A stretch of 64,000 nucleotides of DNA from Candidatus Saccharimonadia bacterium (GTDB taxonomy: Bacteria; Patescibacteriota; Saccharimonadia; UBA4664), in NCBI GenBank assembly GCA_041743505.1, contig JBGTMQ010000017.1, forward strand, positions 15,680-79,679. The letters are read 5' to 3'. The notes below the pieces were generated by a model, which saw nothing but the letters and a program-made list of their open reading frames with translations, was not told the origin of the DNA and made no database searches. This document shows positions 3,216 through 57,802 of the stretch, piece by piece (the stretch's first letter is position 1; each line of letters starts with the position of its first letter). Position numbers and translations under genes: made by a program.

Positions 3216-3244
3216 AACAGCACCTTCGGGTGCTGTTCCTTGTT
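3216..3244 (+). terminator. rho-independent terminator (AACAGCACC-TTCG-GGTGCTGTT then CCTTGTT)
   Basis: Perfect 9-bp stem with tetraloop followed by a T-rich run. Confidence 0.5.
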
Positions 3245-3296
3245 AAAAGACTATACCGCGTGCGCTTATTCGTCAATAGCACAAGCGTTATGCCTC

Positions 3297-3608: not shown

Positions 3609-3749
3609 CAGCTCTGGCGCCGTAACGTGATCGACAACCGCTGTTCGAACTCGCCCAACCAGCGCTACGGCAGCATAGAAAATAAGCTGACCCTTACCGA
3701 AAACTAGAGCTGCAATCAGCCAATATGGTGACTTGAGCGGTGAGTGCGA

Positions 3750-4133: not shown

Positions 4134-4202
4134 AATAATTGCTTTATTTGGCGACGGAGGTTGGTAAGCCCTCCGCCGCCATATGTTACTACCGCGTTGC
4201 CG

Positions 4203-4658: not shown

Positions 4659-4848
4659 GCCACAACCTTTCGGGTCTGGGATTGGATGTAAAGAAGGACG
4701 CTCAATTGTCTTGGGGGACGGTCGAATTGAGTTAGCCAGAAGTTACCATATGACTGACAAGGATGCAAATTTGCGGCTCTGGTTTGGCATTTATGGCCAG
4801 GCGGTTTGCGTGCCCATCGAAAACCTACCCGTTAAGAACCGATCAAAA

Positions 4849-4867
4849 GCCGTACTGTCAACTCCCC
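4849..4867 (-). promoter_or_regulatory. copy of the recA -35/spacer promoter segment (cggggagTTGACAgtacgg), driving the 4658..3750 operon
   Basis: 37-nt near-identity to the recA upstream segment at 2558-2594; about 190 nt upstream of the secreted-protein start. Confidence 0.45.
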
Positions 4868-6705
4868 GTAACTGCCTGCCTCAATGCCGCCCGAATATCC
4901 CCCTGACCCAACACATGAAGCGACGTCATAGCCCGCGTCAACGCCACATACAACTGATCCTGATTAAGCCGCCGCCGCTCCGCCGCCACAGTCACAGATT
5001 CCTCTGGCACCGCAAACGTGTCAGCCTCAATGCCTACCAAGCAAACCGTATCAAACTCCACTCCCTGAGCCTCACGGATTGTCAGGCAATGAACTCCCGG
5101 CCGACCCGCCAACCCCGTCGCATAGGCCTCTATCGTATCCACGTCCTTGGCCAGCACCCCGATAGTACCCCCAGCCGGCACCTCCAATTGCTTAATGTAC
5201 GAAATCGCCGCCACCTCATCAGTCGCCAATTCCACCACCTCCGGGCCTTCGCTCAAACCCTCCGGCAACTCCACGTCATACCCCAACTCGCGAATATACG
5301 CCAAGATCTGCTTCGTATTGCGATAAACCTTATGTAACTTAATGTGCCGCTCAGCCGCAATCGTCTCACCAATCTCCCGCCAATCACGAATCGTCCCAAA
5401 TTGCGTCTGCTGAGCCAAATCACCAATATAGAGCATGGCTTCAGTCCGGCCGCTTACAGCACCTCGCATCAGCCGCAACTGCTCCGGCAGGTAATTCTGA
5501 AATTCATCCACCAGCACCAACGAATAGTTAAGCGGCTGCATGGTCACCTTGGTCCGAACTTTGCCGCCCGGCAAGAAAGTGTAGCTCTCCACACCGGCCA
5601 TCAACCGTCCCTCAGTCCGCTGCTTAGCCACCAGCAACATTGTCAAATCATGGCGGTCAAGCGCCCCTTCCCCCAGCTCGCTTGCCAGCATCTTCAACTG
5701 CCCATGCGCCAGATAGGCCGCATAAGCCGCCTTCAAAAACTGATCCGGCCGCTTGGCGTCAAACCGCGCCTCCAGTGGCTCATGAAGTGCCTTCAGTTTG
5801 GCCGCTTCATAGGCGTCCTGCTCAACTTCATTAGCCCCGGGTCGGACCCGAAAAAAGTAGGCCCTCAGCCCCAGCCGCTCCAACGCCCATTCCGCAAAGG
5901 TAGTTATCCGCACGTCATGAATACCCAGTTCCGGTAGCAAGGTAGAGAAATACTCCTGCGTCCGCCCGTCCTGAACAAATACCATAATCGCCTCAGCCGG
6001 ATAAAGGTCGGTTGTCTCTGGCGCTTGGCGAAGATAGGCAATGCGGTGCAGCGCCAACGTGGTCTTACCGGAGCCGGCCGGCCCGGAAATCACCAACGGC
6101 CCCCGGTGATCCGCCCGGATAACCTGGTCCTGGGCCTTTTCCATCTGGGCCACAATCTCCGGCAGCACAAAGCCTTCTTTGTGAGTCGAAAAGTGGTCTT
6201 GATAAATCAGTTCCCGGGCATCATCCTCCGACTCGCTAGTCATAAACCGGATCTCGCCGCTGGTAATCATAAACTGGTCCCGCCGCTGCAACCGCCCCGA
6301 CACCTGCCGCCCATCCGGCGCAGCGTAGCTAACCTCTCCCGGCTCCTCAAACCGCACCCGCGCCACCGGCGCCGCCCACGAATAAATACCGTGCTCACTA
6401 GCCGGAAATTTGGCAAAATAATAAGCCTGTGCCGGCCGGCCGGGCAGCTCCAAATCACACCGGGCAAAGTATGGCGATGGCGCTAAGGCCTGAAGCTGCT
6501 GCTTCATCATCGTCGTATTTGTGCCCACCGCCAAAGCCCGCAGCCGGTCCTCATACTCGGTATCCCCCTCAATTTCCTTGAAGGCCTCCCAATCCCGCTC
6601 CAAAGTCGTCATCACCTCACCCAGCCGCACGTCCAACTGCCGCCGGGTCTCCGTCAAGTGCTCTTTAGCTTCACCTAGAAGCTGCTCCTTGTGGGTTCGG
6701 TCCAT
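4858..6705 (-). CDS. UvrD/HelD-like superfamily-1 DNA helicase
   Basis: Walker A GPAGSGKTT, VDEFQN (motif II), UvrD_C-like GVEFDTVCLV; N-terminal accessory domain of about 190 aa as in HelD. Confidence 0.7.
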   Translation of the reverse strand: MDRTHKEQLLGEAKEHLTETRRQLDVRLGEVMTTLERDWEAFKEIEGDTEYEDRLRALAVGTNTTMMKQQLQALAPSPYFARCDLELPGRPAQAYYFAKFPASEHGIYSWAAPVARVRFEEPGEVSYAAPDGRQVSGRLQRRDQFMITSGEIRFMTSESEDDARELIYQDHFSTHKEGFVLPEIVAQMEKAQDQVIRADHRGPLVISGPAGSGKTTLALHRIAYLRQAPETTDLYPAEAIMVFVQDGRTQEYFSTLLPELGIHDVRITTFAEWALERLGLRAYFFRVRPGANEVEQDAYEAAKLKALHEPLEARFDAKRPDQFLKAAYAAYLAHGQLKMLASELGEGALDRHDLTMLLVAKQRTEGRLMAGVESYTFLPGGKVRTKVTMQPLNYSLVLVDEFQNYLPEQLRLMRGAVSGRTEAMLYIGDLAQQTQFGTIRDWREIGETIAAERHIKLHKVYRNTKQILAYIRELGYDVELPEGLSEGPEVVELATDEVAAISYIKQLEVPAGGTIGVLAKDVDTIEAYATGLAGRPGVHCLTIREAQGVEFDTVCLVGIEADTFAVPEESVTVAAERRRLNQDQLYVALTRAMTSLHVLGQGDIRAALRQAVTGS

Positions 6706-6716
6706 TGAGCTCCCTG

Positions 6717-7220
6717 CTACCGATAGTTCTGGAAATCCAACGGAAAATCCAAATCTTTACCCTTCAACAATGTCATAACTCCTTGCAAATCATCCTTGCT
6801 AGCCGAGGTCACCCGCACACTGTCACCCTGAATCTGCGTTTTTACCTTGGGATAACTATCCCGAATCGCCTTGGTCAGCTGCTTGGCCTTATCCTGATCC
6901 AATCCTTTCTTAAACGGCACCGTCCAGCGCATTTCCTTGCCACCCTCAACCGGACTCCCGCTCGTATCCAACGTCTTGAGCGACACCCCACGCTTCACCA
7001 GCTTGCTCTGCAACACGTCTAAAATAGCATCGAGCTGGTTTTGGCTCTCCCCCGCGATCAACACGCCGGTCTTGCCGTCCACAAACTCCAATTTGGCCGC
7101 CGTGCCCTTAAAATCGTACCGCGTACTAATCTCGCGCTGCGCCTGGTCAACCGCATTGGTCATCTCAGCCACATCGTAGTCACTAACGACATCAAATGAA
7201 AAATCTTTCGCCATTATCAT
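6717..7220 (-). CDS. yajQ: YajQ-family nucleotide-binding protein (UPF0234/DUF520)
   Basis: About 165 aa; FDVVSDYD...EMTNAVDQAQREISTRYDFKG signature typical of YajQ. Confidence 0.75.
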   Translation of the reverse strand: MIMAKDFSFDVVSDYDVAEMTNAVDQAQREISTRYDFKGTAAKLEFVDGKTGVLIAGESQNQLDAILDVLQSKLVKRGVSLKTLDTSGSPVEGGKEMRWTVPFKKGLDQDKAKQLTKAIRDSYPKVKTQIQGDSVRVTSASKDDLQGVMTLLKGKDLDFPLDFQNYR

Positions 7221-7362
7221 GCCTCCTTGTCGGTTCTTAGTTTATACGAGTTTCGTACTTTGATGTAGCCCAAGAAAGAACGAGCACCGCAGGGAGGTCG
7301 CGTAGCGACAAAGCGGAGCGCAAGTTATGACGCCGGGATATGCGAAGCACGAAACTCGTAGT

Positions 7363-8421
7363 TTACGGAATAACGGTGTCCTTGGCAAAAGCCTGATTGC
7401 GCCGGATCTCACCTTCTCCACCCAGCGCATCAATTTTCTTGCCCGCCACCACTGCATTAGTAATAGTCAAGCTTGTCGCACCTGCATTACCAGTCGTGAT
7501 ACTAACGTCCTTCGTAGCCATGAATAACCTGCTCCACCCGGCTACCGTTGTACCACGCCAAACTTCCTTACCATCAGCCACAACCACCACCGACGTAGTC
7601 TCCTTGACCTTAACAGCCATGGCAATGCCATCGAATGGCGCCGGAGGCACTGCCGCTGCAGCCGGGTCAACCTTGGGCAAATGCGCCAGAATGTTACGCG
7701 TCACCGCCGAAGTCTTGCCCAGCTTACTCCGCGACACCACATGCACCGCATTCACGCCGTCTTGCAATGCCACCTTCTCGCTAAAACCCCCGTTCGTATC
7801 CGTCAGCACCGGCGAATCATTGATAGTTACATCAGATCCCGGCGTGGTCTTACCGCTCAAATCAATAACACCACCCGTAATAGTCGTGTCACCCGAGGGG
7901 TTATTAACGCTCAACATTGGCGCCGCCGCCAGAGCCGAAAATTGCCATAACAAGTAGGCCAAAACCGCCACAATAACCGCCACAACAGTAATAGCCGCCA
8001 CAATCGGACCGGTAAATACCAGCCGTTTAGGCCGCTCCAGCTGTGGCTGCTTAGTTGGACCGGTCTCCAACCCGCCGCGCTCCGCCACATACATCGCCGC
8101 AACCAATGCCCCATCCAGGCCCAAATGGTTAGCGTAATGCTGCACAAACCCGCGCGTATAAATATCATGCGGCAAGCTCGAGTAATCACCCGATTCCAAA
8201 GCCGTCAAAAACTTGCCACGAATCTTCGTATCCAGCTCCACCTGGGCCAAACTCAGCCGCAAGGCCTGCCGCCGGCTCTTTAACTGCTGGCCAACGGGAC
8301 TATTAGGCTTAATCTTAGCGTCTTCGGACATAATCTCATTGTACAGGTTTGAGTACACAGATCGAACCCGTCGCCCATCTGGCGCTACCAAGACAAAAAA
8401 ATGCTTACCGTTTTTTGCCAA
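7363..8421 (-). CDS. RodZ-like membrane protein (XRE-type HTH, TM, C-terminal DUF4115-like)
   Basis: HTH segment QQLKSRRQALRLSLAQVELDTKIRGKFLTALE, single TM, Ser/Thr/Gly-rich C-terminal domain; the real start may be the internal MSEDAK. Confidence 0.55.
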   Translation of the reverse strand: MAKNGKHFFVLVAPDGRRVRSVYSNLYNEIMSEDAKIKPNSPVGQQLKSRRQALRLSLAQVELDTKIRGKFLTALESGDYSSLPHDIYTRGFVQHYANHLGLDGALVAAMYVAERGGLETGPTKQPQLERPKRLVFTGPIVAAITVVAVIVAVLAYLLWQFSALAAAPMLSVNNPSGDTTITGGVIDLSGKTTPGSDVTINDSPVLTDTNGGFSEKVALQDGVNAVHVVSRSKLGKTSAVTRNILAHLPKVDPAAAAVPPAPFDGIAMAVKVKETTSVVVVADGKEVWRGTTVAGWSRLFMATKDVSITTGNAGATSLTITNAVVAGKKIDALGGEGEIRRNQAFAKDTVIP

Positions 8422-8496
8422 AAAAAGCGTATAAAACCTTTGTAAGCAGCGAAGTCAACAGAAAAAGTGTTAGCCCCTTGGACTTAAGTTTATACG

Positions 8497-8922
8497 TTAT
8501 CGACGCCAATTGCGTTTTAGTTCGCGGATATATACAGCCGCGATAATAGCAGCGGCAAGGTAGATTGTAATTATCATAATAATGGGGATATCATTGCCAT
8601 GATAAACGTATGCTCTCAGCACCATTGGAATAATGAGAGCGACAATCAAGGGAAAAACGACTATCGAAGCCATAAGAGCAAGCAAGTTCTTCCTATAAAT
8701 TCCTATAATAATTATGGAGAGAAAAACACTAACGCTCATAGTCATTAGTAAAAGCAGAATAGGAAGACCAGTTTCAAAATTACCGGAAAGTCCATACGCT
8801 ACTATGGGCAAAAATATAAAAGCTACTACTATCAAAAACGCCCAGATAATGATCGGAGCTGATAGTAGACAAGTCAGAATAAAAACAGGGGTTAGCCCCT
8901 TAGCCGTAGGCTTCATATACAT
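8497..8922 (-). CDS. hypothetical polytopic membrane protein (AT-rich gene)
   Basis: 141-aa, Ile/Leu-rich with 4 predicted TM; GC content far below its neighbours. Confidence 0.4.
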   Translation of the reverse strand: MYMKPTAKGLTPVFILTCLLSAPIIIWAFLIVVAFIFLPIVAYGLSGNFETGLPILLLLMTMSVSVFLSIIIIGIYRKNLLALMASIVVFPLIVALIIPMVLRAYVYHGNDIPIIMIITIYLAAAIIAAVYIRELKRNWRR

Positions 8923-8971
8923 AGCATACCATCATAAACATGCCTGAGTAAGCTCAAAATCAGCACAGATA

Positions 8972-9000
8972 TTTACAAAGCAGCAACAATATGCTATAAT
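8972..9000 (+). promoter_or_regulatory. sigma70-type promoter TTTACA-17-TATAAT
   Basis: Consensus-like hexamers with 17-nt spacing about 85 nt upstream of the 9085 start. Confidence 0.5.
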
Positions 9001-9084
9001 TAAATATTAGTGCAGAAAGAGCTCCCTATGGACTCTTTGTTTTTCTGCCTGCTCATCGACATCCACAGGGAGGACTGGTCATCC

Positions 9085-9558
9085 ATGTCCAGACGAACAA
9101 AGATGTGGGGTTCGCTTTTGCTGGTAGCAGTAATCGCTTTAGCAGGCTTTTTTCTACTCCCTCGCAACAGCGAAACTGTCGCCCCAGCTCATGGCAGCGG
9201 TACCGTAGCAGGTGCATCACCTGCTGAACAGATGCCGCCAACCAACATCCAAGCTCTTCAGCAAGCTATCAATAGCAGCGACGTGGGGACTCAGGCCGGG
9301 ACTCTGGCAAGCACTACCCGCTCTGACTTCCTGCAGCAGAACCAGCTGATGCTACCACCAGGCATTACCGTTCGAATCCTAGCGGGTCAAGCAGAGAACT
9401 CCGTCGTCACCCAGAACACATTCTTGGCAGATGGCGATAACGGTCAAGTTACCGCTGAAGCGTTAGACCAGGACCGCCGCGTTGTACAACACTATGTCCT
9501 GCGCCTCGTCCGTGAAAACGGTGCCTGGCTCATTCTCTACACAGAGGAGACGAAATGA
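9085..9558 (+). CDS. hypothetical membrane-anchored protein (N-terminal TM)
   Basis: GGGAGG RBS 11 nt upstream of ATG 9085; stop overlaps the start of the next gene (ATGA). Confidence 0.45.
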   Translation: MSRRTKMWGSLLLVAVIALAGFFLLPRNSETVAPAHGSGTVAGASPAEQMPPTNIQALQQAINSSDVGTQAGTLASTTRSDFLQQNQLMLPPGITVRILAGQAENSVVTQNTFLADGDNGQVTAEALDQDRRVVQHYVLRLVRENGAWLILYTEETK

Positions 9559-10934
9559 ACGCCAAGTTGCTACGATGGATCGGTGCGATTCTTACCGCAA
9601 TGATGGCCGTTTTGTTCAGCTCGTTTTTTGCTCCTGCCCAGGCGAGCGCTAAAGCAGGCTGCTTACCGGATATCGGCAAGCGGTTGCCTGTTATCCTAAT
9701 CCATGGCTTTGGTGATCGGGCGGCTGTCTGGGGTAGCGCCGACGATCCCAATTCAACGCTACATGAAGTCGACAATCTGTTTAACGTATATGCCGAGACC
9801 TTCGACTACGAGACCACAAACAGGCATTGGGTCGATGACGCAAACATTGGAACTCGCTTGGCTCAAAGAATCGCCTGTATAGCAACGTCATCAAGGCAAG
9901 CCGGCGGACCTGGCAAGGTGACGTTAGTTGTCCATTCCATGGGTGGACTCGCAGCCAGATATGCAGCTACACAAACGATGGATGGCCGCAGTTTGTCGAG
10001 TGATATCGGTCTGGTAGCCACCATTGGTACACCAAATACGGGTAGTGGGCTAGCCGATGCTGGCTCAATTCTCTGCTCTCCGATTGCCGAAACACGTAAG
10101 CTAGAACAAAGTGCTGAACATGATAACAGTATTTGTACAGGTGGTGCCGTCGATGCTATGCACAACCATTCCCAGCAAATCGACGATCTGCCCCAACTAC
10201 CCAGCACCATTCCCGTTGTGACAATCGCCGGAGACGTTACAGTTACGTACTCGGTCTTTCGAGTCCCACTAAACGATACGGATAGCGATCTTGTCGTCAC
10301 CAAGCCATCTGCCCTCAAGGGGGCAGCTAAGATCCAATCGATTGGTGGCGAAAAGGTAGTAGCCTGCAGCACCAATATCCAGTCAATCGACCCAGTTGCT
10401 GTCGGTATGGGTATTGGCCAAACTGCCGGCAAGCTGGCATTCAAACAGCCCGTGCTACCCTCATGCTGGCACAACGGCCTGCCAAGTCACCAGGAGGTCA
10501 AGCAAAGCGTAACTGACGCGATCAAAGCCTATCAGAGCAAGTTGAAAGCCCAAGCCGACGCCGCCAACGCCAACCAGGCGCTTGCACCATACATCGGCGT
10601 CTGGACGGTCCATGGCGGTAAGCTGGAGATCCGGTCCGACCGCACTGGCACCCAAACTATCAGTCTCGGATGCGGCGCCGCTGCCATCTGCAACGAAGTT
10701 GTCCAGCTCTCATTCGCTGGCCCGTCCAATGGGAGCCTCACCGCAAAAATAAACCGCGTATCCGTACCGGACGGCTATCAGCCCAGCGTGAAAGTTGGTG
10801 ATTCCTTCACACTCACACTACAGCGTGACCGCCATGTATTACACACCATCTGGTCTGATGGCAAAGATCACGGCAACCCTTTCTGGTGCGACGCGTTCGC
10901 AACAACACAAAGTTTTACTGAATGTGGCCAGTAA
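9555..10934 (+). CDS. secreted alpha/beta-hydrolase (lipase/esterase; GxSxG = HSMGG) with a C-terminal Cys-containing domain of unknown function
   Basis: Signal peptide; ILIHGFGD...VVHSMGG lipase class-2/DUF676-like motifs; C-terminal half of about 200 aa unrecognised. Confidence 0.55.
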   Translation: MNAKLLRWIGAILTAMMAVLFSSFFAPAQASAKAGCLPDIGKRLPVILIHGFGDRAAVWGSADDPNSTLHEVDNLFNVYAETFDYETTNRHWVDDANIGTRLAQRIACIATSSRQAGGPGKVTLVVHSMGGLAARYAATQTMDGRSLSSDIGLVATIGTPNTGSGLADAGSILCSPIAETRKLEQSAEHDNSICTGGAVDAMHNHSQQIDDLPQLPSTIPVVTIAGDVTVTYSVFRVPLNDTDSDLVVTKPSALKGAAKIQSIGGEKVVACSTNIQSIDPVAVGMGIGQTAGKLAFKQPVLPSCWHNGLPSHQEVKQSVTDAIKAYQSKLKAQADAANANQALAPYIGVWTVHGGKLEIRSDRTGTQTISLGCGAAAICNEVVQLSFAGPSNGSLTAKINRVSVPDGYQPSVKVGDSFTLTLQRDRHVLHTIWSDGKDHGNPFWCDAFATTQSFTECGQ

Positions 10935-46212: not shown

Positions 46213-46235
46213 CAGGGGTCATGCGAACAAAAAGC

Positions 46236-46272
46236 GAATAAAAAACCGTCCCCAACCTTAAAAGTCAGGGAC
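46236..46272 (-). terminator. intrinsic terminator on the minus strand (CCGTCCCTGACTTTTAAGGTTGGGGACGG then TTTTTTATTCGCTTTTT)
   Basis: Stem-loop plus U-run immediately downstream of the small ORF 46293..46454. Confidence 0.5.
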
Positions 46273-46292
46273 GGAAGTACTGTTATCTGGGA

Positions 46293-46454
46293 CTACTCGT
46301 TCAGACTGTCATAAATCTGCTTAAATCGGTCCCGTGCCTGCTTGGCCTCCGGATCCTCCGGATACATCCTCAACTCTCTCTCAGCTCGCTCTAAATCACG
46401 TTTTGCCTGGGCGAGAGCCTTTTTATTCAGCTCCTCATCATCAGACGAACCCAT
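46293..46454 (-). CDS. candidate 53-aa helical protein (MGSSDDEELNKKALAQAKRDLERAERELRMYPEDPEAKQARDRFKQIYDSLNE)
   Basis: GAGGAG RBS 9 nt before the ATG; followed by its own terminator; below the ORF-track cutoff. Confidence 0.3.
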   Translation of the reverse strand: MGSSDDEELNKKALAQAKRDLERAERELRMYPEDPEAKQARDRFKQIYDSLNE

Positions 46455-46909
46455 TTCAACCAGCTCCTCAGATTAATCAGCCCCTGAACCTAAGGTCCAG
46501 GGGCACGAACGCTAACAAAAACGTAACTCATCACTCCAGCGGCGGACATTTGCAGTTGATGCAGTATTTGTTCGTACCTCTGCATTCACTGCATCCAGTG
46601 TGACTATTAGCCTTGACTGAGCATGTATACACATCACGCTCATTGCACCGTCTGCATAGCTCACCATGCAGGTGCCTTCGATTGCGAGGCAAGGTCGTCG
46701 CCACCTCCTCGGTCGTATGATGATTTATCTCGCCGAATTGTTATATCACTTATCGAGCTTTTTGTACAAGATGCACGCCCACAACTAAGGAAACCCAACC
46801 ACAGGCCCACTCTAAATGTAAGCAACTTACATATAAACTTACCGTAAATAAATGTAAGTTACTTACATTTAGTGAAAGGGTAAATACCTAAAGGCGCCGG
46901 ACCAACTGG

Positions 46910-48339: not shown

Positions 48340-49173
48340 CTATGCCAAACAGTATCGTCCATCCGCTTGGCGAATAATAAACCCTTCCTGCACCAACGCC
48401 GCTAGCACGATCTCCAGCCGCCCGTCCTCGATAACAAACTCACCCGCCAACCGCGGCCGCTCCAGCAGTTGCCGCAACACCTCACCCCGTAGCTGCCGCA
48501 AACTACCCTCAAACTTACTCTGCACCGCATAATGCTTGCTGCGCCGGTTCGGATTCGGCACCCGCTTCGCCAAGTCTGCCCCATAGTCCATCAGCGCGTG
48601 GTACCACTCACGCGGGTGCTCCCGGTCCAGCGCCACCTCAATCACCGGTCGCAGCTCCGCATCAGTCACATCGTCGCGGTCGGCAAAAAACTCATGGATA
48701 AACACCCGCCGGATATTAGTCTCAATAAAAATCACCGGCTCGTCATACGCAAACGCCGCTATGCTACCCGCCGTATTCGGACCGATTCCCGGCAGCCGCA
48801 CCAACACCGCCGGATCACGTGGCAGCACACCATCAAACTCATCCACCACCATCGCCGCCGCCCGCTCTAGCCACAAAGCCCGCCGGTTATAGCCCATGCC
48901 CTGCCAAGCCGCCAACAACTCAGTCACACCAGCCCCGGCCAGTGCCTCAAAATCCGAAAAAACTCGCAGCCATTCCGGATACTTAACCAGCACCCGGCTG
49001 ACCTGCGTCTGCTGCAGCATTACCTCACTCACAAACACCTGATACGGCGTAGGATCATGCCGCCAAGGCAAGTCACGGCCATAATCCCGGTAGAAATCCC
49101 AAACCTTTTCTTGAAATAGGCTATACTTGAAATTATCCATACAATATGGTATTTTAACCCGGTTCCTTGCCAA
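48340..49173 (-). CDS. HhH-GPD superfamily DNA glycosylase (endonuclease III/MutY-like, apparently without the 4Fe-4S Cys cluster)
   Basis: VMLQQTQV...LPGIGPNTAG helix-hairpin-helix and Gly/Pro-rich loop plus a catalytic Asp region; no C-x6-C-x2-C-x5-C. Confidence 0.6.
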   Translation of the reverse strand: MARNRVKIPYCMDNFKYSLFQEKVWDFYRDYGRDLPWRHDPTPYQVFVSEVMLQQTQVSRVLVKYPEWLRVFSDFEALAGAGVTELLAAWQGMGYNRRALWLERAAAMVVDEFDGVLPRDPAVLVRLPGIGPNTAGSIAAFAYDEPVIFIETNIRRVFIHEFFADRDDVTDAELRPVIEVALDREHPREWYHALMDYGADLAKRVPNPNRRSKHYAVQSKFEGSLRQLRGEVLRQLLERPRLAGEFVIEDGRLEIVLAALVQEGFIIRQADGRYCLA

Positions 49174-49190
49174 CTAGAAGAGGTGATCTC

Positions 49191-49616
49191 ATGCCATCCT
49201 GGAACAGGCGTTCTAAGGCCCAAACCGTGAGACCGGACCGGCCCGACCCGGATCCCGTCATCGAAGCCCGCCTCCAGCAGCTCGATGAACTTGCAACCCA
49301 AAACACCGTCAAGCGCGGGCAAATCAACGACTACCGCGCTGAAATCAACCTGCTTCATTCTCAACTGCGGAGCTTCGCCCATAAGGCAGCGAGTGCCACC
49401 TATACTTCCGATGAGACTAAGTACAAGACTCAAATCAAAACCGGTGAAGCTCGCATCGAACAACTCCAGGATGAAATCCGCCAGCTGGAAGCCGGCATCA
49501 ACGCCAACCACGAGCAGATCATCACATATCACGAGCAAATTGTGGCGCATCGCCAGTCGCTCGCGCAAGCCCGCGACGACATGATCCTCCGCTATAAACC
49601 CCCGACCGACACATAG
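49191..49616 (+). CDS. coiled-coil protein, paralog 1 of a tandem triplet (N-terminal RPDRPDPDPVIEARLQQLDEL)
   Basis: AAGAGG RBS; basic Pro-rich N-terminus then heptad-like helical region. Confidence 0.5.
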   Translation: MPSWNRRSKAQTVRPDRPDPDPVIEARLQQLDELATQNTVKRGQINDYRAEINLLHSQLRSFAHKAASATYTSDETKYKTQIKTGEARIEQLQDEIRQLEAGINANHEQIITYHEQIVAHRQSLAQARDDMILRYKPPTDT

Positions 49617-49647
49617 CCGGCCCAAACCTAGCGAAAAGAGGCCAGTC

Positions 49648-50043
49648 GTGGCTCTCCTACGACGCCGACGTTCCACGCCCGAACCCTCACCCCCAACTCG
49701 GCCGACTCATCCGGATCCGGCTATCGAAGCCAAGCTTCAGCAGCTCGATAGCCTACGCCAACGAGTCAAGGACAAAGAAGAGCAGGTTAAGCAGTACGGA
49801 TACGAAATAGCCCAACTCCACATTTTAAATCGGGAGTTAAGCGCCGATGCCGCCTCGGGATACTCAAGCTACGATAGCTGCCAGGGTCAGATCGAAAGTA
49901 ATGACGGCCGGATCGAAGCACTCGCTAGCGCCACCACTCAGCTCGAGCAGGAAATCGACACCGCTCACGAGCGCATCGTTGCATTAATTGCTGATCTGAG
50001 CAAAACAGTCGAAAAAGAGTTTCTCAGCTACTTCATCCAGTAG
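49648..50043 (+). CDS. coiled-coil protein, paralog 2 (N-terminal PTHPDPAIEAKLQQLDSL), GTG start
   Basis: AAAGAGG RBS; same architecture as paralog 1. Confidence 0.45.
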   Translation: MALLRRRRSTPEPSPPTRPTHPDPAIEAKLQQLDSLRQRVKDKEEQVKQYGYEIAQLHILNRELSADAASGYSSYDSCQGQIESNDGRIEALASATTQLEQEIDTAHERIVALIADLSKTVEKEFLSYFIQ

Positions 50044-50066
50044 CCCTAAACGAGAAAGGCTGTGCT

Positions 50067-50450
50067 ATGCGCTTCCTCCGCCCCAAAGTCGCCACACCAC
50101 CACCGCGCGCACCCGACCCGGACCCTGTAGTCGAAACCCGGTTGCAGCAACTCGACGAGCTGGCCTCGCAAAACTCCTTTAAGCGTACTCAGATGGGTCA
50201 GTACCAGACCGAGATTCAGAAGCTATATGACGATATGCGGGCTCTCGAACACAGAGCTCAGAGCTCATACTACAGAAAAGGGGAGGCTCAACGTCAGGGC
50301 CCTGTAACCGAGCGGCGTATCGCGCAGCTGCAAGCCGAAATTCGAACACTCGAGAGTGATATCCAGGCCAATCTGGCCCGAGCTACTGAAGTCAGGCGCC
50401 AGATCGAGCAGGAACGGTTCAGAGACATCAGAGACTTCAAAGCCAACTAG
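50067..50450 (+). CDS. coiled-coil protein, paralog 3 (N-terminal RAPDPDPVVETRLQQLDEL)
   Basis: GAGAAAGG RBS; same architecture; followed by a terminator. Confidence 0.5.
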   Translation: MRFLRPKVATPPPRAPDPDPVVETRLQQLDELASQNSFKRTQMGQYQTEIQKLYDDMRALEHRAQSSYYRKGEAQRQGPVTERRIAQLQAEIRTLESDIQANLARATEVRRQIEQERFRDIRDFKAN

Positions 50451-50454
50451 TCTG

Positions 50455-50490
50455 TAGCGCCCCGGAAGTTTCCGGGGCGCTAATCATTTT
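50455..50490 (+). terminator. bidirectional intrinsic terminator (AGCGCCCCGGAAGTTTCCGGGGCGCT then AATCATTTTTA)
   Basis: Perfect 11-bp stem between the coiled-coil triplet and the convergent yjbR-like gene. Confidence 0.55.
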
Positions 50491-50810
50491 TATCGTTTTT
50501 TCTTCGTCACCAACTCATACGAATGATCTATCAGCTCCCGCACCAGCTCATCCGGCAACTTCCCGGTCAAATCCAGCGTGTTCCAGTGCTGCTTGTTCAA
50601 ATGATAACCAGCCGTAACCTCCGGATAATCCTGCCGCAAAATCTGCGCCCGCACCGGGTCACATTTAAGGCTAATCGACCGCGGCGCCTCACTCGCCGGC
50701 GCCACAGCAAACATCTTGCCACCTACCTTAAACACCGTTGCCTCCGGTCCAAACGGATACGTCTCCTCTGCACCGGGCTTGCTCAAGCAATATTTCACCA
50801 CATCAATCAT
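50490..50810 (-). CDS. MmcQ/YjbR-family protein
   Basis: 106-aa; YCLSKPGAEETYPFGPEATVFKVGGKMFA pattern of YjbR. Confidence 0.55.
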   Translation of the reverse strand: MIDVVKYCLSKPGAEETYPFGPEATVFKVGGKMFAVAPASEAPRSISLKCDPVRAQILRQDYPEVTAGYHLNKQHWNTLDLTGKLPDELVRELIDHSYELVTKKKR

Positions 50811-51229
50811 GATTTTCCGCTCGGTTTAAAATCCAACGCACACGAACTCACGCAATAATGCTGCCCCGACTTAGCCGCCGGATCACCCTCAAACAAATGC
50901 CCCAAATGCGAGCCGCACCGGGCACAAGTCACCTCGGTCCGCCGCATGCCAAACGAGTTGTCTTCACGTAGCTCCACCCGGCCTTTCGCCGCCTCAGCAT
51001 AAAATGCCGGCCAGCCCTGCAAACCAGGCAAGGTACTCTCAAACTTCGTATCCGCTAAAAATAGCTCCTGACCGCAAGCCGCACAATGATAAGTCCCGTC
51101 CTCGTAATTGTCTACGTACCGAGCAGTCCCAGGCGCCTCAGTTCCTTTCTCACGAAGCACATGGTATTGCTCCGGCGTCAGCCTCTCACGCCAATACTCC
51201 TCGGGCTTATCCCGCATGTCCTCAGTCAT
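50807..51229 (-). CDS. msrB: peptide-methionine (R)-S-oxide reductase MsrB
   Basis: Two CxxC pairs (YHCAACG...CARCGSHLGHLF) and the RTEV(T)CARC catalytic region. Confidence 0.85.
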   Translation of the reverse strand: MTEDMRDKPEEYWRERLTPEQYHVLREKGTEAPGTARYVDNYEDGTYHCAACGQELFLADTKFESTLPGLQGWPAFYAEAAKGRVELREDNSFGMRRTEVTCARCGSHLGHLFEGDPAAKSGQHYCVSSCALDFKPSGKS

Positions 51230-52440: not shown

Positions 52441-52528
52441 TGGCGGAGGGAGAGGGATTCGAACCCTCGAGGGCTTGCACCCAACGCGCTTTCCAAGCGC
52501 GCGCCATAGGCCACTAGGCGACCCCTCC
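52441..52528 (-). tRNA. tRNA-Ser (anticodon GGA), encoded CCA
   Basis: Reverse complement GGAGGGGUCGCCUAGUGG...CUUGGAAAG...GGUUCGAAUCCCUCUCCCUCCGCCA: 7-bp acceptor stem, D-loop, anticodon loop with GGA, long variable arm, T-loop GTTCGAATC. Confidence 0.85.
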
Positions 52529-53328: not shown

Positions 53329-55131
53329 ATGGGCCCGTTCCTCAAAACGCTCGGCAAAATAGCCGCGGTCTGGCTCTTACTGCCGTTCCTGATCTTTCTC
53401 TATTGGGTATGCCTCAAGCTGATCGTACCCGGTTTTGGCGGCTGGCATACCGAACTCTGGCTATGGCTCGATAGATGGTTCTATTCGGGTGGTGGCTGGC
53501 TCTGGATATGGCTGGTAATTGTCTCAATCATCAGCCTGCTCATAGTCGCCGATGCCCTTGGTTACGAGTCCCGCAGCTCAAGACAGCTTCACGCCGGTCT
53601 CGGCCTTCTGCTGGTCATTAGCCTGCTCGTCTCGGGATTCCAGTTCATTAATGTAATCTGGAACAACGACAAGGACTGGGCCAAATACTACGCCAGCACC
53701 ACGACATTCGTCATACCGGATCTCAACAACCCACCGGCCTCCATCAGAAAACTGTTCGATCGGAATCCCCACGGGGACAACAAGCCGTGCGTCCTGCTCG
53801 GCCCGGTCAGCGTATCCGGAGAAGCCGACGATATCCCAGTTTGCATTACACCGGGCACACTGCCCATCGCAGGCTGGGAATCACGGGTGTCATCACTGGA
53901 TGCAGCAAAGTTCATGCTCAAAAACGCCTCTGGCGCCACCCCGGGCACGAACATCAACGAAGACACTGTCACCTATCTCAATGCCAGTAATGGCAACGCG
54001 GCCAGGTGGAGTGCCATCCGGGACGGCTCCGGTATTAGCCAACCCATGGACGCCATCATCGAGTGGACCGGCCAGGGTAGTCCCACGGCTTGCTTCTTCC
54101 GGGGCCCACACAGCATCAACCGGGCATTTGCGGGCGGCAAAATGAATAACCTCCCGAATCTGCTCAACGACCTCCATCCCCGGTTGCTCTTTGATACCAA
54201 AGACGCCTGGGGTTACTGCAATAACGGGGAGCCGGTTATTGTCCTACCTGTGCAGGAGCAGATTCACATCCCTACCCGGACAGCACAAACTGCCGCGGGT
54301 GTCGTGATTATGCGGGGATCGCCTTCGGGCGCTCCCAAGTTCGAGCACAAGCGCAACATCGCGCCTGGCGAGCTACCGGGGCCGGTTTACCCCATGACTC
54401 TGGTAGCCGCTCAACGCGAAGCCATCCCTTGGACGCCGGGCCGGGCCATCATGAACAACAACAACTTTGGCTACGATCCGACAACCCACGAGGCTCAAGA
54501 AGGGAATGTTTCGGAGTATCTGCTCCGCAGCGAAACCGACGACCGCCTCTACTGGGTTACCCCGCTCACCCCCAACGGAGACTCACAGGTCCTAGTTGGA
54601 TACTCAGTCACCCCGGCCGACACAGTCAACCAGGGTTCACTGAACGAGCAGAAGATCTACATGCTGGCTGATAACGATCCCAGGATTATCAACCTGGCCA
54701 TCTTGTTCAGCAAGGCTCAGAACTACATGGCCCACCTTAACCCCGGTTTCGCCTCGAATCATGGCAAGGTAACCGAATTCCTACCAACAGGCGGTGCCCA
54801 GGGTGATGAATGGCAAGCATATGGCGAGCTCAACGGACAGGTTATCTACAAGATCACCCTGTCAGCAAGCGAATCGGTTCACCCGATCGCCGTCTCGCTG
54901 CACCGGGACTTCCCACTGCCCAGTCCAGAGCAGCAGCTAGCCGGGACCACGCAGTCAGCTCCTTCAAGTCAACCAGCCCAACAGGGCCAAGCACCCACTA
55001 CCCAGACCCCCACCGGTCTGAACTGCGGGCGGCCACTTGATCAAATCCCTCCAACGGATCTGATCACGTGCATCAGGGGTTTCGCTGACGAGTTAGCTCG
55101 CCGGCCGGCCACAAACCAGCCTGGAGGCTGA
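53329..55131 (+). CDS. large membrane-anchored extracellular protein (600 aa; 3-4 N-terminal TM, Trp-rich; Gln/Pro/Thr-rich C-terminus)
   Basis: Hydrophobic N-terminus, long hydrophilic ectodomain; no family recognised. Confidence 0.5.
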   Translation: MGPFLKTLGKIAAVWLLLPFLIFLYWVCLKLIVPGFGGWHTELWLWLDRWFYSGGGWLWIWLVIVSIISLLIVADALGYESRSSRQLHAGLGLLLVISLLVSGFQFINVIWNNDKDWAKYYASTTTFVIPDLNNPPASIRKLFDRNPHGDNKPCVLLGPVSVSGEADDIPVCITPGTLPIAGWESRVSSLDAAKFMLKNASGATPGTNINEDTVTYLNASNGNAARWSAIRDGSGISQPMDAIIEWTGQGSPTACFFRGPHSINRAFAGGKMNNLPNLLNDLHPRLLFDTKDAWGYCNNGEPVIVLPVQEQIHIPTRTAQTAAGVVIMRGSPSGAPKFEHKRNIAPGELPGPVYPMTLVAAQREAIPWTPGRAIMNNNNFGYDPTTHEAQEGNVSEYLLRSETDDRLYWVTPLTPNGDSQVLVGYSVTPADTVNQGSLNEQKIYMLADNDPRIINLAILFSKAQNYMAHLNPGFASNHGKVTEFLPTGGAQGDEWQAYGELNGQVIYKITLSASESVHPIAVSLHRDFPLPSPEQQLAGTTQSAPSSQPAQQGQAPTTQTPTGLNCGRPLDQIPPTDLITCIRGFADELARRPATNQPGG

Positions 55132-55179
55132 CACAGCGCCCACCCCGCCGGCCTCAGAGCCGGCAACCCCCGCCAGTAC

Positions 55180-55234
55180 GGCGGAGTTCAGGACATCCAG
55201 TCCTGGGCTCCGCCCCTGGCGGTTTTTCTTTTAC
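55180..55234 (+). terminator. repeated terminator element, copy 2 (then GGTTTTTCTTTT)
   Basis: Same stem as copy 1 with a better T-run. Confidence 0.55.
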
Positions 55235-55316
55235 CCCCAACCAAATAGCCATTTCCCACCTCAGTTGACGAACCATATCAAACGTGTTATTAATAGTTAA
55301 GTTTTAAGTCTATTGG

Positions 55317-55381
55317 CAAATCTTTTCGTCCTAGCGGCTTTCGAGGGTAAAGTCCGGAAACGAGGAGGTTTGCTTCCTCGG
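55317..55381 (+). promoter_or_regulatory. conserved structured 5'-leader element, copy 2 (...GGTAAAGTCCGGAAACGAGGAGGTTTGCTTCCTCGG)
   Basis: See copy 1; lies about 70 nt upstream of the 55450 operon. Confidence 0.4.
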
Positions 55382-55449
55382 CTACAGCTCAGGCTGCTGC
55401 ACATTGACAGACAATTCCCACCCACGACCATACTCGGAGAGGAGGATCG

Positions 55450-56502
55450 ATGGGACGATTTATCAGCCTATGGCTAGCTATCCTCGGGCTCACGCTCCTG
55501 GCAACCCCATCAGCCAACGCCGCGACTTACCTCGAAGAGGCGGCCGCGGGGTTACAAGAGGCCAGAGTGTTTGTCTCTGCGCAAGCAGAAAACACCACCC
55601 CGGAAACCACCGGCCGGCTGGAACGGCTCCTCAATGATCGCGACGGCATTGTCATCGCGATACTGCCGGAAGCCGCTTCCACCGAAACCAACGGGGACGT
55701 CCAGGAATTCGCCCGCCGGCTCGACGCAAAGCTTGGCAATAAGTCCGTCGTAGCCGTCGCCATCGGCAAGAAAGTTGCGGCCTCCGCAGCAATTCTGCCT
55801 ACTGGTGTCGCTGTCGAGCAGGCCAAACGCGCCAGTACCGTCTCTTCCAACACGGAAGAAACCCTGGGCACGTTTATTGCCAATATCCACGACTACCAGC
55901 GAGCACACCCAGAGATCAAGATTCCTGCACCGCCAAGCGCTCCAGCGCCGGCCGAAACTGAATCCAGCAGCAATCTGGGCTGGATACTGATTGCGGCTTT
56001 GGCAGTCTCGTTCCTGATCGTCATCTTCATGCTCCTTGGCCCTGGATCGAAGCGGACGACACCAGTCGTGCCTCGTCCGGCCAACCCGGAGTTCGACCTC
56101 ACGTCGCCACCGGTCGTCCGCGAAGTTCTGTCAGGGGTTTTGGCCCTCCGGTCACAGATCCGCGACACCGAACTGCGGAGTACCATCACCCAGCTGGCTC
56201 AAGACATCGAATACTTGTTCGGTGAACTGAGTCAGAGCAAGGAAGTTGGCATCGTCGAGGTTAACGCTGACAGGTTCAACCAGAACCTAAATAGCATCCG
56301 GGAAGTCCTGGTCAAGTACATCAGGATCCAGGACAACCCGCGCTACTACCCACAGGAGTCGCTGGCCAAAGGCCGCCAATCAGTGGCCGATTTTGCCCAG
56401 CACGTACTGCAATGGACCCAGTCCGTCAGCAGTATGAGCCTCCTGGAGTACAACGTTAACACCGAGCTCCTGTCCACCCGTGAAAGGCGGCCAGGACAGT
56501 GA
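55450..56502 (+). CDS. TPM-domain-like membrane protein (signal peptide, extracytoplasmic TPM/YgcG-like domain, TM, cytoplasmic C-terminal domain)
   Basis: GGAGAGGAGG RBS; RLERLLNDRDGIVIAILPEAAS...AVAIGKKVAASAAIL resembles TPM-domain phosphatase-like proteins; one internal TM. Confidence 0.45.
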   Translation: MGRFISLWLAILGLTLLATPSANAATYLEEAAAGLQEARVFVSAQAENTTPETTGRLERLLNDRDGIVIAILPEAASTETNGDVQEFARRLDAKLGNKSVVAVAIGKKVAASAAILPTGVAVEQAKRASTVSSNTEETLGTFIANIHDYQRAHPEIKIPAPPSAPAPAETESSSNLGWILIAALAVSFLIVIFMLLGPGSKRTTPVVPRPANPEFDLTSPPVVREVLSGVLALRSQIRDTELRSTITQLAQDIEYLFGELSQSKEVGIVEVNADRFNQNLNSIREVLVKYIRIQDNPRYYPQESLAKGRQSVADFAQHVLQWTQSVSSMSLLEYNVNTELLSTRERRPGQ

Positions 56503-56858
56503 CCGGCAACCAAGACGGCCTCGTAGTCGTCGTTGACGGTCGCCTGACTCCTCGCTTCGCAGCTACCTTACTGCGAACATGCGAGGCAGCCATAGACCTG
56601 CTCGAGGACGTCCCCGTCCGCGAGTTATGGCTGCGGCACGATCTGCCGGATCGCACCGGCATCACCACGCTCGTTGAGTTTCTTGTCAGCGAGTCTCCCT
56701 GGGAGGGACGGTCACAGATCGAAACGATCGTTCTCTTCTCGCCGTCCGGTGATGGTGGTGAGCTCAAAGCCCTGCTTCAGCCTCACTACCAGATCCGGCT
56801 CGAAAAAGTTACCCCCGAATTGTTCGATGAGCTTCCCGAAGCTCTTGGAGAAAGGTAA
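56499..56858 (+). CDS. hypothetical protein (ATGA-coupled to the upstream gene)
   Basis: 119-aa ORF in an operon. Confidence 0.4.
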   Translation: MTGNQDGLVVVVDGRLTPRFAATLLRTCEAAIDLLEDVPVRELWLRHDLPDRTGITTLVEFLVSESPWEGRSQIETIVLFSPSGDGGELKALLQPHYQIRLEKVTPELFDELPEALGER

Positions 56859-56866
56859 GGCAGGTA

Positions 56867-57802
56867 ATGAAACGACGCACGAGAGTCTTGGCGCTGTTTC
56901 TCGGCATTATCGCCATGGTCGCCACCCTCGGAGCTTGCTCCTCGGCCACCAACACCGACCAGTGCGCCTGGGTGGTGGGCGATGGCCAAGACGGCGGCGA
57001 CCGCAACCTCCACCGGGTTGTCTACCCCGGTCAGGCTGCCAACGAGGGGGTGAACGAAGATGTTTGGTTTGTCCCCTGTAGTTACCGTAACTTCATCGTT
57101 ACCCCCCGTACTGACGTCGGTGACCGGCACGACGCCGTCCTCATCCGGACCAAGAGCCCGGACGGCCAAACACCGGGAACACCACTGAAGGTGTGGTTGT
57201 CGGCCTATTGGACTCCCAACCAGGACCGCGCCGCCATGGAAGATTTCTTGGCGCTGTGCCGAAAGTACACCTGCTACACGCAAAGTGCTGACGAGGCCGG
57301 TTCCGCCAATTACTCCACCCCGGGCTGGAACTCAATGCTACGGGAGAACTTCAGCTTCCCGATCGACCGCATTGGGCTGGTAGCAGGCACTGAGTTTGAC
57401 GACAGCCTTTGGCGTAACCCTTCCAAAGAGCAGACTGACAAACTCGCCAACCGGATGTCCGAGCTCTTCGCCGAGGAAGTCCGCCGCACTACCGGCTCCA
57501 ACAAGGACCTGTTCTGCGGATCAGGTAACTCTGCCTGGCCGGACCCCACCAAGCCTGGCGAGGGTGAGTTCAAGTGCACCCAGGTCCGGTTTGCCATTGA
57601 CCGGATCGAACCGGATGACCCGAAGCTCGTCGAGCAAACTAACCAGGCCAACGTCACCGACCAGCGCCGTCAGGATGCCGAGAAGCTTTACGGGCCTACT
57701 TGGGCGCCGTACTGGCTGGGCGTGCAGGACGCCTGCCGCGACAAGCCCAACTGCACCATCGTTGTCAGCCCCAACGGGAGCCTTCCGGTCCCCGTCCGCT
57801 GA
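56867..57802 (+). CDS. secreted lipoprotein (lipobox LGAC), Cys-containing
   Basis: Signal peptide with L-G-A-C lipobox; AGGTAAGGCAGG RBS region. Confidence 0.5.
   Translation: MKRRTRVLALFLGIIAMVATLGACSSATNTDQCAWVVGDGQDGGDRNLHRVVYPGQAANEGVNEDVWFVPCSYRNFIVTPRTDVGDRHDAVLIRTKSPDGQTPGTPLKVWLSAYWTPNQDRAAMEDFLALCRKYTCYTQSADEAGSANYSTPGWNSMLRENFSFPIDRIGLVAGTEFDDSLWRNPSKEQTDKLANRMSELFAEEVRRTTGSNKDLFCGSGNSAWPDPTKPGEGEFKCTQVRFAIDRIEPDDPKLVEQTNQANVTDQRRQDAEKLYGPTWAPYWLGVQDACRDKPNCTIVVSPNGSLPVPVR

Follow-up and report, generated by a model that had tools for sequence, protein, structure and literature searches.

Three consecutive genes of the window (the whole 64-kb stretch of DNA analysed) make up a single operon and are ancient duplicates of one small cytoplasmic protein, which belongs to a previously undescribed family mostly carried by uncultured phages. 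This is probably an accessory, phage-derived and fast-evolving hairpin protein that has expanded locally, and not a housekeeping one. The descriptive part of this account, namely the operon, the hairpin fold, the new family, its phage contexts and a chromosomal subclade with a variable slot, is highly probable; a phage origin of the hairpin gene is somewhat favoured, and the proposed mechanism, in which a cap and a stalk bind a partner in a conflict role, is rather doubtful. Taken as a single statement, i.e. a duplicated hairpin operon from a phage-origin accessory gene with cap-plus-stalk partner binding in conflict, the account has slightly less than an even chance of being right.

The first-pass annotation of this DNA had described three consecutive genes for proteins of 127–141 aa, each with its own ribosome-binding site and a shared N-terminal motif, followed by a single terminator. 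All of this holds: the ORFs lie where described, all on the plus strand, the same three products resulting from independent calls on two Logan contigs, an RBS-like purine-rich sequence lies 5' of all three starts, and the motif and the terminator-like hairpin are found as listed here, together with the adjoining features.

48340..49140, minus strand: HhH-GPD (EndoIII/MutY-type) DNA glycosylase gene, divergent neighbour of the hairpin gene
49127..49155, plus strand: promoter-like site TTGAAA-17-TATTTT with a TG upstream of the -10, a consensus match only
49191..49616, plus strand: gene 1, 141 aa from ATG, pI 7.0
49242..49292, plus strand: N-terminal motif of gene 1, PDPDPVIEARLQQLDEL, covering the helix N-cap and the start of helix 1
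49648..50043, plus strand: gene 2, 131 aa, GTG start, acidic, pI 5.2
49708..49755, plus strand: N-terminal motif of gene 2, HPDPAIEAKLQQLDSL
50067..50450, plus strand: gene 3, 127 aa, basic, pI 9.7
50112..50162, plus strand: N-terminal motif of gene 3, PDPDPVVETRLQQLDEL
50455..50492, plus strand: intrinsic-terminator-like hairpin, 12-bp stem with 9 G-C pairs and a 4-nt loop, then a T-run
50490..50810, minus strand: YjbR-family gene, convergent with gene 3

The genes are separated by gaps of 31 nt and 23 nt, and an alternative TTG start at 49167 would extend gene 1 to 149 aa. The one promoter-like site ahead of the triplet lies in a 50-bp divergent region common to the HhH-GPD gene, and the ATATGGTAT(T/C)T block at this site is conserved in two relatives (L003 and L088); a single strong terminator-like hairpin, at 50455–50482 with a T-run behind it, separates gene 3 from YjbR, which is transcribed towards it. 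The neighbourhood consists of housekeeping genes (dnaG, rpoD, msrB), and no fourth copy occurs elsewhere within the 64-kb window. A 215-aa minus-strand ORF (49029-49676) was considered as a real gene and rejected, as it is the plus frame that homologs conserve. The GC and GC3 of the triplet agree with those of the adjoining genes, and hence no recent transfer took place.

Judged by sequence comparison, the paralogy of the three genes is far above chance: BLASTP gives E-values of 4e-18 for genes 1 and 2, 2e-22 for genes 1 and 3 and 2e-7 for genes 2 and 3, the Smith-Waterman z-scores against shuffles are 18–35 for the three pairs, and pairwise identities range from 29 to 43%. These scores, with no known family in the profile libraries, bear out the proposal of paralogs of an unrecognised family. 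The N-terminal block had been taken as clearly homologous and the remainder as strongly diverged; the homology of the block stands, but the similarity is not confined to it, as invariant residues span both helices (Y48, E51, I52, L55, R60, A66, S68, R88, I89, L92, L99, E100, I103). Gene 2 is the most divergent of the three. In a neighbour-joining tree, which is weak given such short sequences, genes 2 and 3 fall outside the group formed by gene 1 and its relatives P0003 and P0004, a placement that would imply an ancient duplication followed by losses.

The fold is predicted to be a long antiparallel two-helix coiled-coil hairpin. The AlphaFold2 model of gene 1 has helices at residues 22–67 and 72–134 (pLDDT 94.5, pTM 0.78), and that of a phage member, P0008, has helices at 18–64 and 69–109 with a short terminal helix over DLAY (pLDDT 96.2); residues 11–20 of the latter have a mean pLDDT of 96, and its N-terminal segment is therefore confidently placed. 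Ahead of the hairpin come a basic Pro-rich N-terminal tail and then an (H/D)PDP helix cap, and the models contain the hairpin alone, with no extra domain. The 'heptad-rich helical body' of the first-pass annotation is thus indeed helical, and is more exactly described as a single antiparallel helical hairpin. A further suggestion, that these are surface proteins, is unlikely, as signal peptides and hydrophobic segments are absent from all three sequences; the RR-containing N-terminus was also considered as a Tat signal and discarded, since no hydrophobic h-region follows the RR.

A word-indexed search of 5.8 billion proteins returned at first just the three genes and one relative; the family was reached only by exhaustive profile (HMM) search. 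The latter recovered the family end to end, with 83 matches of which about 60 are 100–135 aa long, and the family comprises about 60 clusters at 50% identity. Members of these provisionally named HPDP...DLAYL hairpin proteins are defined by a length of 100–140 aa, a basic N-tail, the motif (H/D)P(D/N)P-x-x-E-x-x-L-Q-[RQ]-[IL] and a two-helix hairpin with L-Q-x-E-I-R-x-L-E in helix 2; the family start motif is R-x-P-H-P-D-P-x-x-E-x-x-L-Q-R-I, and D-L-A-Y-L stands at or near the end. All three window proteins have the defining features and align end to end, with HMM E-values of 1e-51 to 1e-63. The narrow Saccharibacteria-type motif, back-translated, had no match in GTDB genomes (185,579 species representatives), JGI metagenomes or IMG/VR; a hand-made PHPDPxxExxLQ DNA pattern led to four viral contigs.

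Conservation across the family is strongest at R16, H19, P20, D21, P22, E25, L28, the a/d core and D121-L-A-Y-L125, and the tip loop (residues 66–80) is the most variable and gappy region of the alignment. The C-terminal motif, D-[LV]-[AS]-[YFW]-L, is found in 56 of the 64 members; it is carried by 49 of the 53 H-type sequences and missing in all four D-type ones, which are all chromosomal, but this co-variation with H19 is not independent evidence because it is confined to a single clade. In 24 of the 56 members 1–13 extra residues follow DLAYL, so that the motif need not end the protein, as an obligate docking peptide at the C-terminus would. Readings of it as an HbYX-type proteasome-docking motif, a clamp-binding motif, an SSB-tail mimic or an FtsZ C-terminal-peptide mimic were also considered and set aside, as it agrees poorly with the published consensus of each, that of clamp binding being QL[SD]LF. 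Within the window, genes 1 and 3 have D in place of H in the cap motif and have no DLAYL, and gene 2 keeps the family-typical HPDP with a degenerate C-terminal motif (EFLSYF). With cap motifs lost or degraded, the window paralogs may therefore differ in role from the phage proteins.

On chromosomes the family is represented by a single diverged subclade, in a group of probable Saccharibacteria; the window probably belongs to this group, as judged from its synteny with an NCBI MAG that bears the name Candidatus Saccharimonas sp. and from one best hit. In four of four chromosomal loci the hairpin gene and one and the same HhH-GPD glycosylase gene point away from each other at a spacing of 50–67 bp, and the opposite flank is variable. 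A survey of copy number in related genomes, which had been proposed as a check, found 0, 1 or 3 copies at this same slot, three being the state of the window. Of the three, gene 1 is the ortholog, both by position and by closest sequence, of P0003 (locus L003, 54–55% identity) and P0004 (locus L088, 46–47%), each of which is present as a single copy. Between msrB and the HhH-GPD gene, YjbR is a second variable cargo, its place being taken by a glyoxalase gene in these two loci; in L107 the slot is empty. The hairpin genes are accessory in these genomes. Judged by identities between orthologs, they also evolve faster than the adjoining genes, in line with the rapid evolution first suspected: between the window and L003 the identity is 72% for HhH-GPD, 64% for MsrB and 54–55% for the hairpin protein, and with respect to L085 it is 67% for HhH-GPD and 34% for the hairpin protein.

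These observations bear on whether the proteins could be a housekeeping cytoskeletal or cell-division coiled-coil scaffold (of ZapB, DivIVA, FtsB/DivIC or SepF-partner type) triplicated by chance, which we consider very unlikely. Such a scaffold would agree with the coiled-coil composition, with weak sub-threshold Pfam and NCBIfam matches to ZapB, DivIC, FtsB and FtsL, with the label 'cell division protein FtsB' on two JGI entries and with the housekeeping chromosomal neighbourhood. However, the scores are 12–14 bits against curated cut-offs of 29–32 (DivIC 12.5–14 versus 28.9, ZapB 14 versus 31.5), and the transmembrane segment of FtsB, DivIC and FtsL has no counterpart here. The gene is, moreover, missing from the slot and the syntenic 21 kb of L107–L110, where RpoD is at least 90% identical, the narrow pattern has no occurrence in the GTDB representatives, and the majority of the family lies on phage-like contigs. 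Profile searches, in which a characterised housekeeping family might have emerged, returned none.

All 11 of the inspected non-chromosomal contexts resemble phage or mobile-element DNA, with hallmarks that include tail tube, tape measure, RecT/YqaJ, PolA and WhiB, and most of the typical members are found in uncultured phages, in the company of small genes that are early or serve DNA metabolism. L104 encodes DnaN, YqaJ and RecT, its member coming after YqaJ, RecT and a 131-aa gene, which is the position where lambda carries gam; in L106 (PolA, SNF2, dCMP deaminase, PG_binding_1) the member is near PolA, and in L102/L103 it stands in a small-gene array. In L087 (tail tube PF25681, NUMOD4/HNH and a 1602-aa tape-measure-like gene) it lies within the tail module, but on the opposite strand. 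Further phage-like contexts are L084, L116 and L118, as well as four IMG/VR viral contigs (L092, with a sigma factor, L095, with WhiB, L098 and L100). Many of the member-carrying phages are high-GC, and at least one bears WhiB. A search across the phage loci for a conserved partner gene beside the members found none; three diverse members used as tblastn queries had no match in 50,697 GenBank phage records, and blastn of two phage-like loci gave none either.

Such contexts could also suggest an accessory factor of DNA metabolism with a functional tie to the neighbouring HhH-GPD glycosylase, for instance a nuclease inhibitor comparable to Gam, a modulator of repair or a protein that binds the clamp or SSB; we hold this reading to be unlikely. 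The tight divergent pairing with the glycosylase while the other flank varies, the surroundings of the L104 and L106 members and the basic N-terminal tail are all in its favour. On the other hand, DNA-metabolism genes are nearby in only some phage loci, the L087 member sits among tail genes, neighbours are not conserved among phage loci, and one relative retains the glycosylase without any hairpin gene; in addition DLAYL agrees with neither the clamp-binding nor the SSB-tail consensus, and it is lost in the chromosomal copies.

In the account that we prefer, the hairpin gene would have entered the lineage from a phage and then been kept as an accessory gene, the window lineage having either expanded it or alone retained all three copies; the phage-to-cell direction is read from counts of contexts and not from a rooted tree. 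In the family, the conserved R-x-P-H-P-D-P and D-L-A-Y-L segments would both be located at the open end of the predicted hairpin, where they may build a small structured cap serving as partner-binding head, and the hairpin would act as a rigid stalk or oligomerisation module whose tip loop is free to vary. Most likely the protein would work through protein-protein interaction when phage and host are in conflict or the host is taken over, with the chromosomal copies possibly forming homo- or hetero-oligomers (gene 2 being acidic and gene 3 basic) that would modulate the same target or serve as its decoy.

Phages of actinobacterial hosts have been reported to interact with Saccharibacteria (PMC10746230, PMC13578794). 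A more specific reading, to which we assign a quite low probability, is that a hairpin family of uncultured phages, apparently with actinobacterial hosts, was captured by episymbiotic Saccharibacteria and diversified into a neutral, acidic and basic hetero-oligomeric set, which would decoy or exclude phages, or would manipulate the actinobacterial host by mimicking the binding of the phage protein to a conserved cellular target. If this capture and decoy did take place, the locus would be a genetic trace of a three-way interaction between phage, host and epibiont. If the preferred account holds, a compact family, readily folded and expressed, is common to uncultured phages and to the chromosomes of ultrasmall episymbionts, whose interactions with phages have become experimentally accessible only recently (PMC13578794). 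The variation between 0, 1 and 3 copies in one fixed chromosomal slot offers a natural comparison for function, and the conserved terminal cap is an obvious target for mutagenesis. Should the proteins be generic structural coiled coils, the value of the analysis would be limited to correcting the misleading automatic labels 'chromosome segregation ATPase' and 'FtsB' and to seeding a new family model.

Scans of Pfam, NCBIfam, PADLOC and PHROGs with the three proteins and all 60 members gave only sub-threshold coiled-coil noise, the closest PHROG being phrog_2619 (E 9e-5, gene 1 only); the PDB held no family match beyond such noise, and the BFVD matches are all labelled 'uncharacterized protein'. 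The suggested defence or effector-immunity function thus finds no direct support: in PADLOC-DB 2.0 the matches, of 10–20 bits, are limited to SMC-type coiled-coil arms (JetC, LmuB, PbeC), and the genes adjoining the triplet (glycosylase, YjbR, MsrB) include no defence-system partner. SMC and Rad50 arms do share the coiled-coil composition, with NCBIfam and PADLOC matches of 13–24 bits within arm regions, but the window proteins lack an ATPase head and score 20- to 60-fold under the cut-offs (for TIGR02168, 14–19 bits versus 567). The automatic JGI label 'chromosome segregation ATPase' is an annotation artefact; the label 'SbcCD ATPase' refers to the same SMC/Rad50 group. HP0958/CT398 (FlgZ-type coiled-coil hairpin; PDB 3na7, 4ilo) has about 237 aa and a C-terminal zinc-ribbon domain that the window proteins do not have, and at an identity of just 12–14% a sequence-level relationship is absent. 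A GreA/DksA-type hairpin of the RNAP secondary channel, which would have conserved acidic residues at its tip, is equally not indicated, as the tip loop is the least conserved part and the models show no globular or zinc domain.

That the genes might encode secreted hairpin substrates of type VII-like or other specialised secretion (WXG100, Esx or Lap-like), arranged in tandem and forming heterodimers, is extremely unlikely. Unlike the WXG100/Esx and Lap pairs, the family has no WxG, export motif or nearby T7SS ATPase, and has a phage distribution. In fact, the inter-helix loops are AASATYTSDE, AASGYSSYDS and AQSSYYRKGE, none of 60 aligned members has a WxG at any position, PF06013 (WXG100/Esx) matches none of the 60, and the 64-kb window has no FtsK-type ATPase of EccC/EssC kind, its sole FtsK-like gene being a canonical FtsK (4TM, alpha, motor and gamma domains). 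Hardly any weight is given, likewise, to a membrane-remodelling hairpin of ESCRT-III/PspA/Vipp1 type whose basic N-terminus would mediate polymerisation on membranes: the corresponding HMMs (PF03357, PF04012) match no family member, and in those proteins the hairpin is followed by alpha-3 to alpha-5, whereas the models obtained here lack the remaining helices. The nearest comparison is with the small, uncharacterised ORFan hairpin proteins of phage early regions, from which the window differs in having a chromosomal, triplicated subclade and in belonging to a new family whose members no PHROG, Pfam or NCBIfam model recognises, and which the family resembles in size, in the all-helical hairpin, in lying among closely packed small genes of the early regions of tailed phages, in the lack of conserved neighbours and in its patchy distribution.

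The three neighbouring hairpin genes lie on the forward strand of the window as follows:

49191-49616, + strand, gene 1, ORF of 141 aa
49648-50043, + strand, gene 2, ORF of 131 aa with a GTG start
50067-50450, + strand, gene 3, ORF of 127 aa

The first-pass annotation had claimed three tandem reading frames sharing an N-terminal motif, and both points hold, as gene calling on two Logan metagenome contigs with the same locus independently arrived at the identical three products and the motif is found in all three proteins. The genes are spaced by 31 nt (genes 1-2) and 23 nt (genes 2-3), with a single sigma-70-like consensus match (TTGAAA-17-TATTTT with TG) 5' of gene 1 and a single 12-bp G+C-rich hairpin plus T-run 3' of gene 3. 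A 215-aa ORF antisense to gene 1 (49029-49676, minus strand) was judged spurious, the relatives keeping the plus-strand frame.

Pairwise BLASTP E-values are 4e-18 (genes 1-2), 2e-22 (genes 1-3) and 2e-7 (genes 2-3), and Smith-Waterman scores exceed those of shuffles by 18-35 standard deviations, at identities of 29-43%. Because the invariant residues (Y48, E51, I52, L55, R60, R88, I89, L92, L99, E100 and I103) span the entire alignment, the homology is full-length: the conserved N-terminal block reported earlier is confirmed, but not the confinement of similarity to it. At the DNA level the motif block alone is still 74-82% identical between copies, and the GC and GC3 of the triplet are those of the adjacent housekeeping genes, which together indicate that the duplications are old and the genes long-resident. 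No further copy occurs in the rest of the 64-kb window. In a neighbour-joining tree, too weak to root, genes 2 and 3 branch off before gene 1 parts from its single-copy relatives P0003 and P0004; this order of the sequences, if real, suggests an ancient duplication with later losses and not a recent burst. The paralogs have strongly different isoelectric points (7.0, 5.2 and 9.7 for genes 1 to 3), and this calculated spread could reflect hetero-pairing. The net charges of the gene 2 and gene 3 products are about -5 and about +3.6.

Scans of the three products against Pfam, NCBIfam, PADLOC and PHROGs gave nothing near any curated threshold, the listed matches being coiled-coil noise (e.g. SMC, Rad50, golgin, tropomyosin), which bears out the earlier remark that the family was not recognised. 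A word-indexed search of 5.8 billion proteins retrieved only the triplet genes themselves and one relative, P0003, and an exhaustive HMM search with a four-sequence profile against 1.84 billion cluster representatives (E < 1e-3) yielded 83 proteins, about 60 of which have 100-135 aa and align over their full length. Their consensus comprises a basic N-terminus (M-x-[WF]-[FR]-R-R), a Pro-rich linker, the segment R-x-P-H-P-D-P-x-x-E-x-x-L-Q-R-I-x-x-L-R, a second half with L-Q-x-E-I-R-x-L-E-x-x-I and, at or close to the C-terminus, L-x-x-x-D-L-A-Y-L. The 60 aligned members have no consistent Pfam match, and a PDB profile search with the family matched coiled coils alone. Labels given automatically by the sources ('chromosome segregation ATPase', 'SbcCD ATPase subunit', 'FtsB', 'CwlO-like', 'Na+/phosphate symporter') are mutually contradictory and were rejected as artefacts. 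Judged by these sequence comparisons, the hairpin proteins are an undescribed family, not a known one.

AlphaFold2 modelling with the family alignment predicts for gene 1 an antiparallel two-helix hairpin (residues 22-67 and 72-134; mean pLDDT 94.5, pTM 0.78). In P0008, a typical phage member (pLDDT 96.2), helices 18-64 and 69-109 are predicted, and after an interruption of three residues DLAY forms a short final helix; the RRQHPDP segment (residues 11-20) has an average pLDDT of 96 and so takes a defined position in the model. Conservation centres on both termini and the a/d core, the tip loop being the most variable and gappy part, and the hairpin has its N- and C-terminus at the open end, where they would build a small cap acting as the functional head. 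Of the 53 sequences whose cap carries H, 49 have the C-terminal motif, and it is missing from all four with D (genes 1 and 3, P0003 and P0004), a co-occurrence weakly consistent with such a cap, the D-type being a single clade. The hairpin would be a stalk and the cap a head binding a partner, the paralogs possibly acting as homo- or hetero-oligomers.

Three chromosomal loci carry one copy each, namely L003 (JGI 3300081257, with P0003), L088 (JGI 3300065080, with P0004) and L085 (NCBI MAG GCA_035479255.1, labelled Candidatus Saccharimonas sp.). In all three the hairpin gene is divergent from an HhH-GPD glycosylase ortholog, 51-67 bp apart (identity to that of the window 72% in L003 and 67% in L085; L088 has a gene fragment only, outside the comparison), and the opposite flank varies by locus, being occupied by YjbR in the window and elsewhere by a 177-aa gene or a glyoxalase gene. 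The lineage L107-L110 shares a 90% identity cluster with the window for RpoD and has a glycosylase 67% identical to the window's; here 160 bp lie between msrB and the glycosylase gene, and 21 kb contain no family member. From these loci and the window, the hairpin copy number in the slot is 0, 1 or 3, and the slot is a small variable islet.

Contents of the slot flanked by msrB and the HhH-GPD glycosylase gene
Window, 48340-51229: YjbR and three hairpin genes
L003 and L088: glyoxalase gene and one hairpin gene
L085: 177-aa gene and one hairpin gene
L107-L110: empty (160 bp)

Relative to the window, the hairpin protein of L003 is 54-55% identical versus 72% and 64% for its neighbours, and that of L085 34% versus 67%; by these identities, the hairpin protein evolves faster than its neighbours.

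L107-L110 also have a 358-aa Fic-domain gene at the place matching window 46213-46909, between dnaG and a PHP-domain gene, where the window has about 700 bp with a 53-aa ORF only (46293-46454) and no Rfam match. Further downstream, four consecutive plus-strand genes (53329-57802) encode proteins of 600, 350, 119 and 311 aa, and may form an uncharacterised envelope module: a Pfam scan of the 600-, 350- and 311-aa proteins found nothing, and these have, respectively, a multi-TM N-terminus with a Pro/Gln-rich tail, a signal-peptide-like start with one internal TM, and a lipobox-like TLGAC. In all 64 kb a single RNA gene was detected, a tRNA-Ser(GGA) (52441-52528, minus strand).

All other loci inspected resemble phage or mobile-element DNA, with GC contents of 55-72% in the phage-like loci. 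In L087 a tail-tube protein (PF25681) is encoded together with a tape-measure-like product of 1602 aa and a NUMOD4/HNH endonuclease; the family member and a 66-aa gene are on the other strand, placed as a moron would be. L106 has dCMP deaminase, SNF2 helicase, PolA and a PG_binding_1 protein, and L104 the order DnaN, YqaJ, RecT, 131-aa gene, family member. L102/L103, L084, L116/L117 and L118 consist of small genes that overlap and all run in one direction. Four IMG/VR viral contigs (L092, L095, L098, L100) carry members; WhiB (PF02467, E 2e-20) is encoded on one of the four and a sigma factor on a different one. As WhiB is a hallmark of Actinobacteria and of the phages infecting them, Actinobacteria are probably the hosts of at least some family-carrying phages. 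None of 50,697 GenBank phage records has a member with three different queries, and no neighbour gene is conserved across the phage loci. In L104 (Logan SRR27830850 contig, 46.9 kb; region 2492-10321), the phage-like contig's own DNA polymerase III beta clamp, YqaJ exonuclease and RecT are encoded immediately upstream of the hairpin gene; in L095 (IMGVR_UViG_3300044653_000098) the WhiB gene is at 4161-4421, and the family member (7809-8223) is split over two frames, by frameshift or assembly error.

The most credible rival reading is a DNA-metabolism factor tied to the HhH-GPD glycosylase, to which the conserved divergent arrangement and the positions near RecT and PolA in two phages would point; however, this proximity is not general and one relative has the glycosylase without a hairpin gene. 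Two things contradict a cell-division scaffold: the distribution among phages, and a close relative with no hairpin gene in the 21 kb covered. The triplet is not housekeeping. What is well supported is an accessory, fast-evolving, cytoplasmic helical-hairpin family, mainly phage-borne, with one diverged subclade fixed beside the glycosylase gene in probable Saccharibacteria and three copies here. We infer transfer from phage to cell from the predominance of phage contexts. A host prophage binds Saccharibacterium TM7x, with limited infection (PMC13578794); two papers, this one and PMC10746230, make gene flow ecologically plausible, which is plausibility and not evidence.

The surface and defence roles proposed for the triplet in the first-pass annotation found no evidence, either for a surface location or for any recognised defence system. 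The value of the triplet is modest: it represents a new family of small proteins whose predicted fold is clean, which is linked to phages and whose copy number forms a natural series. Compared with known systems, a WXG100-like secreted pair is a poor match, as the hairpin proteins have neither WxG nor an export motif and there is no T7SS ATPase in the 64-kb window, whose FtsK is canonical; with an ESCRT-III/PspA-like polymer, the hairpin geometry is the sole feature in common.
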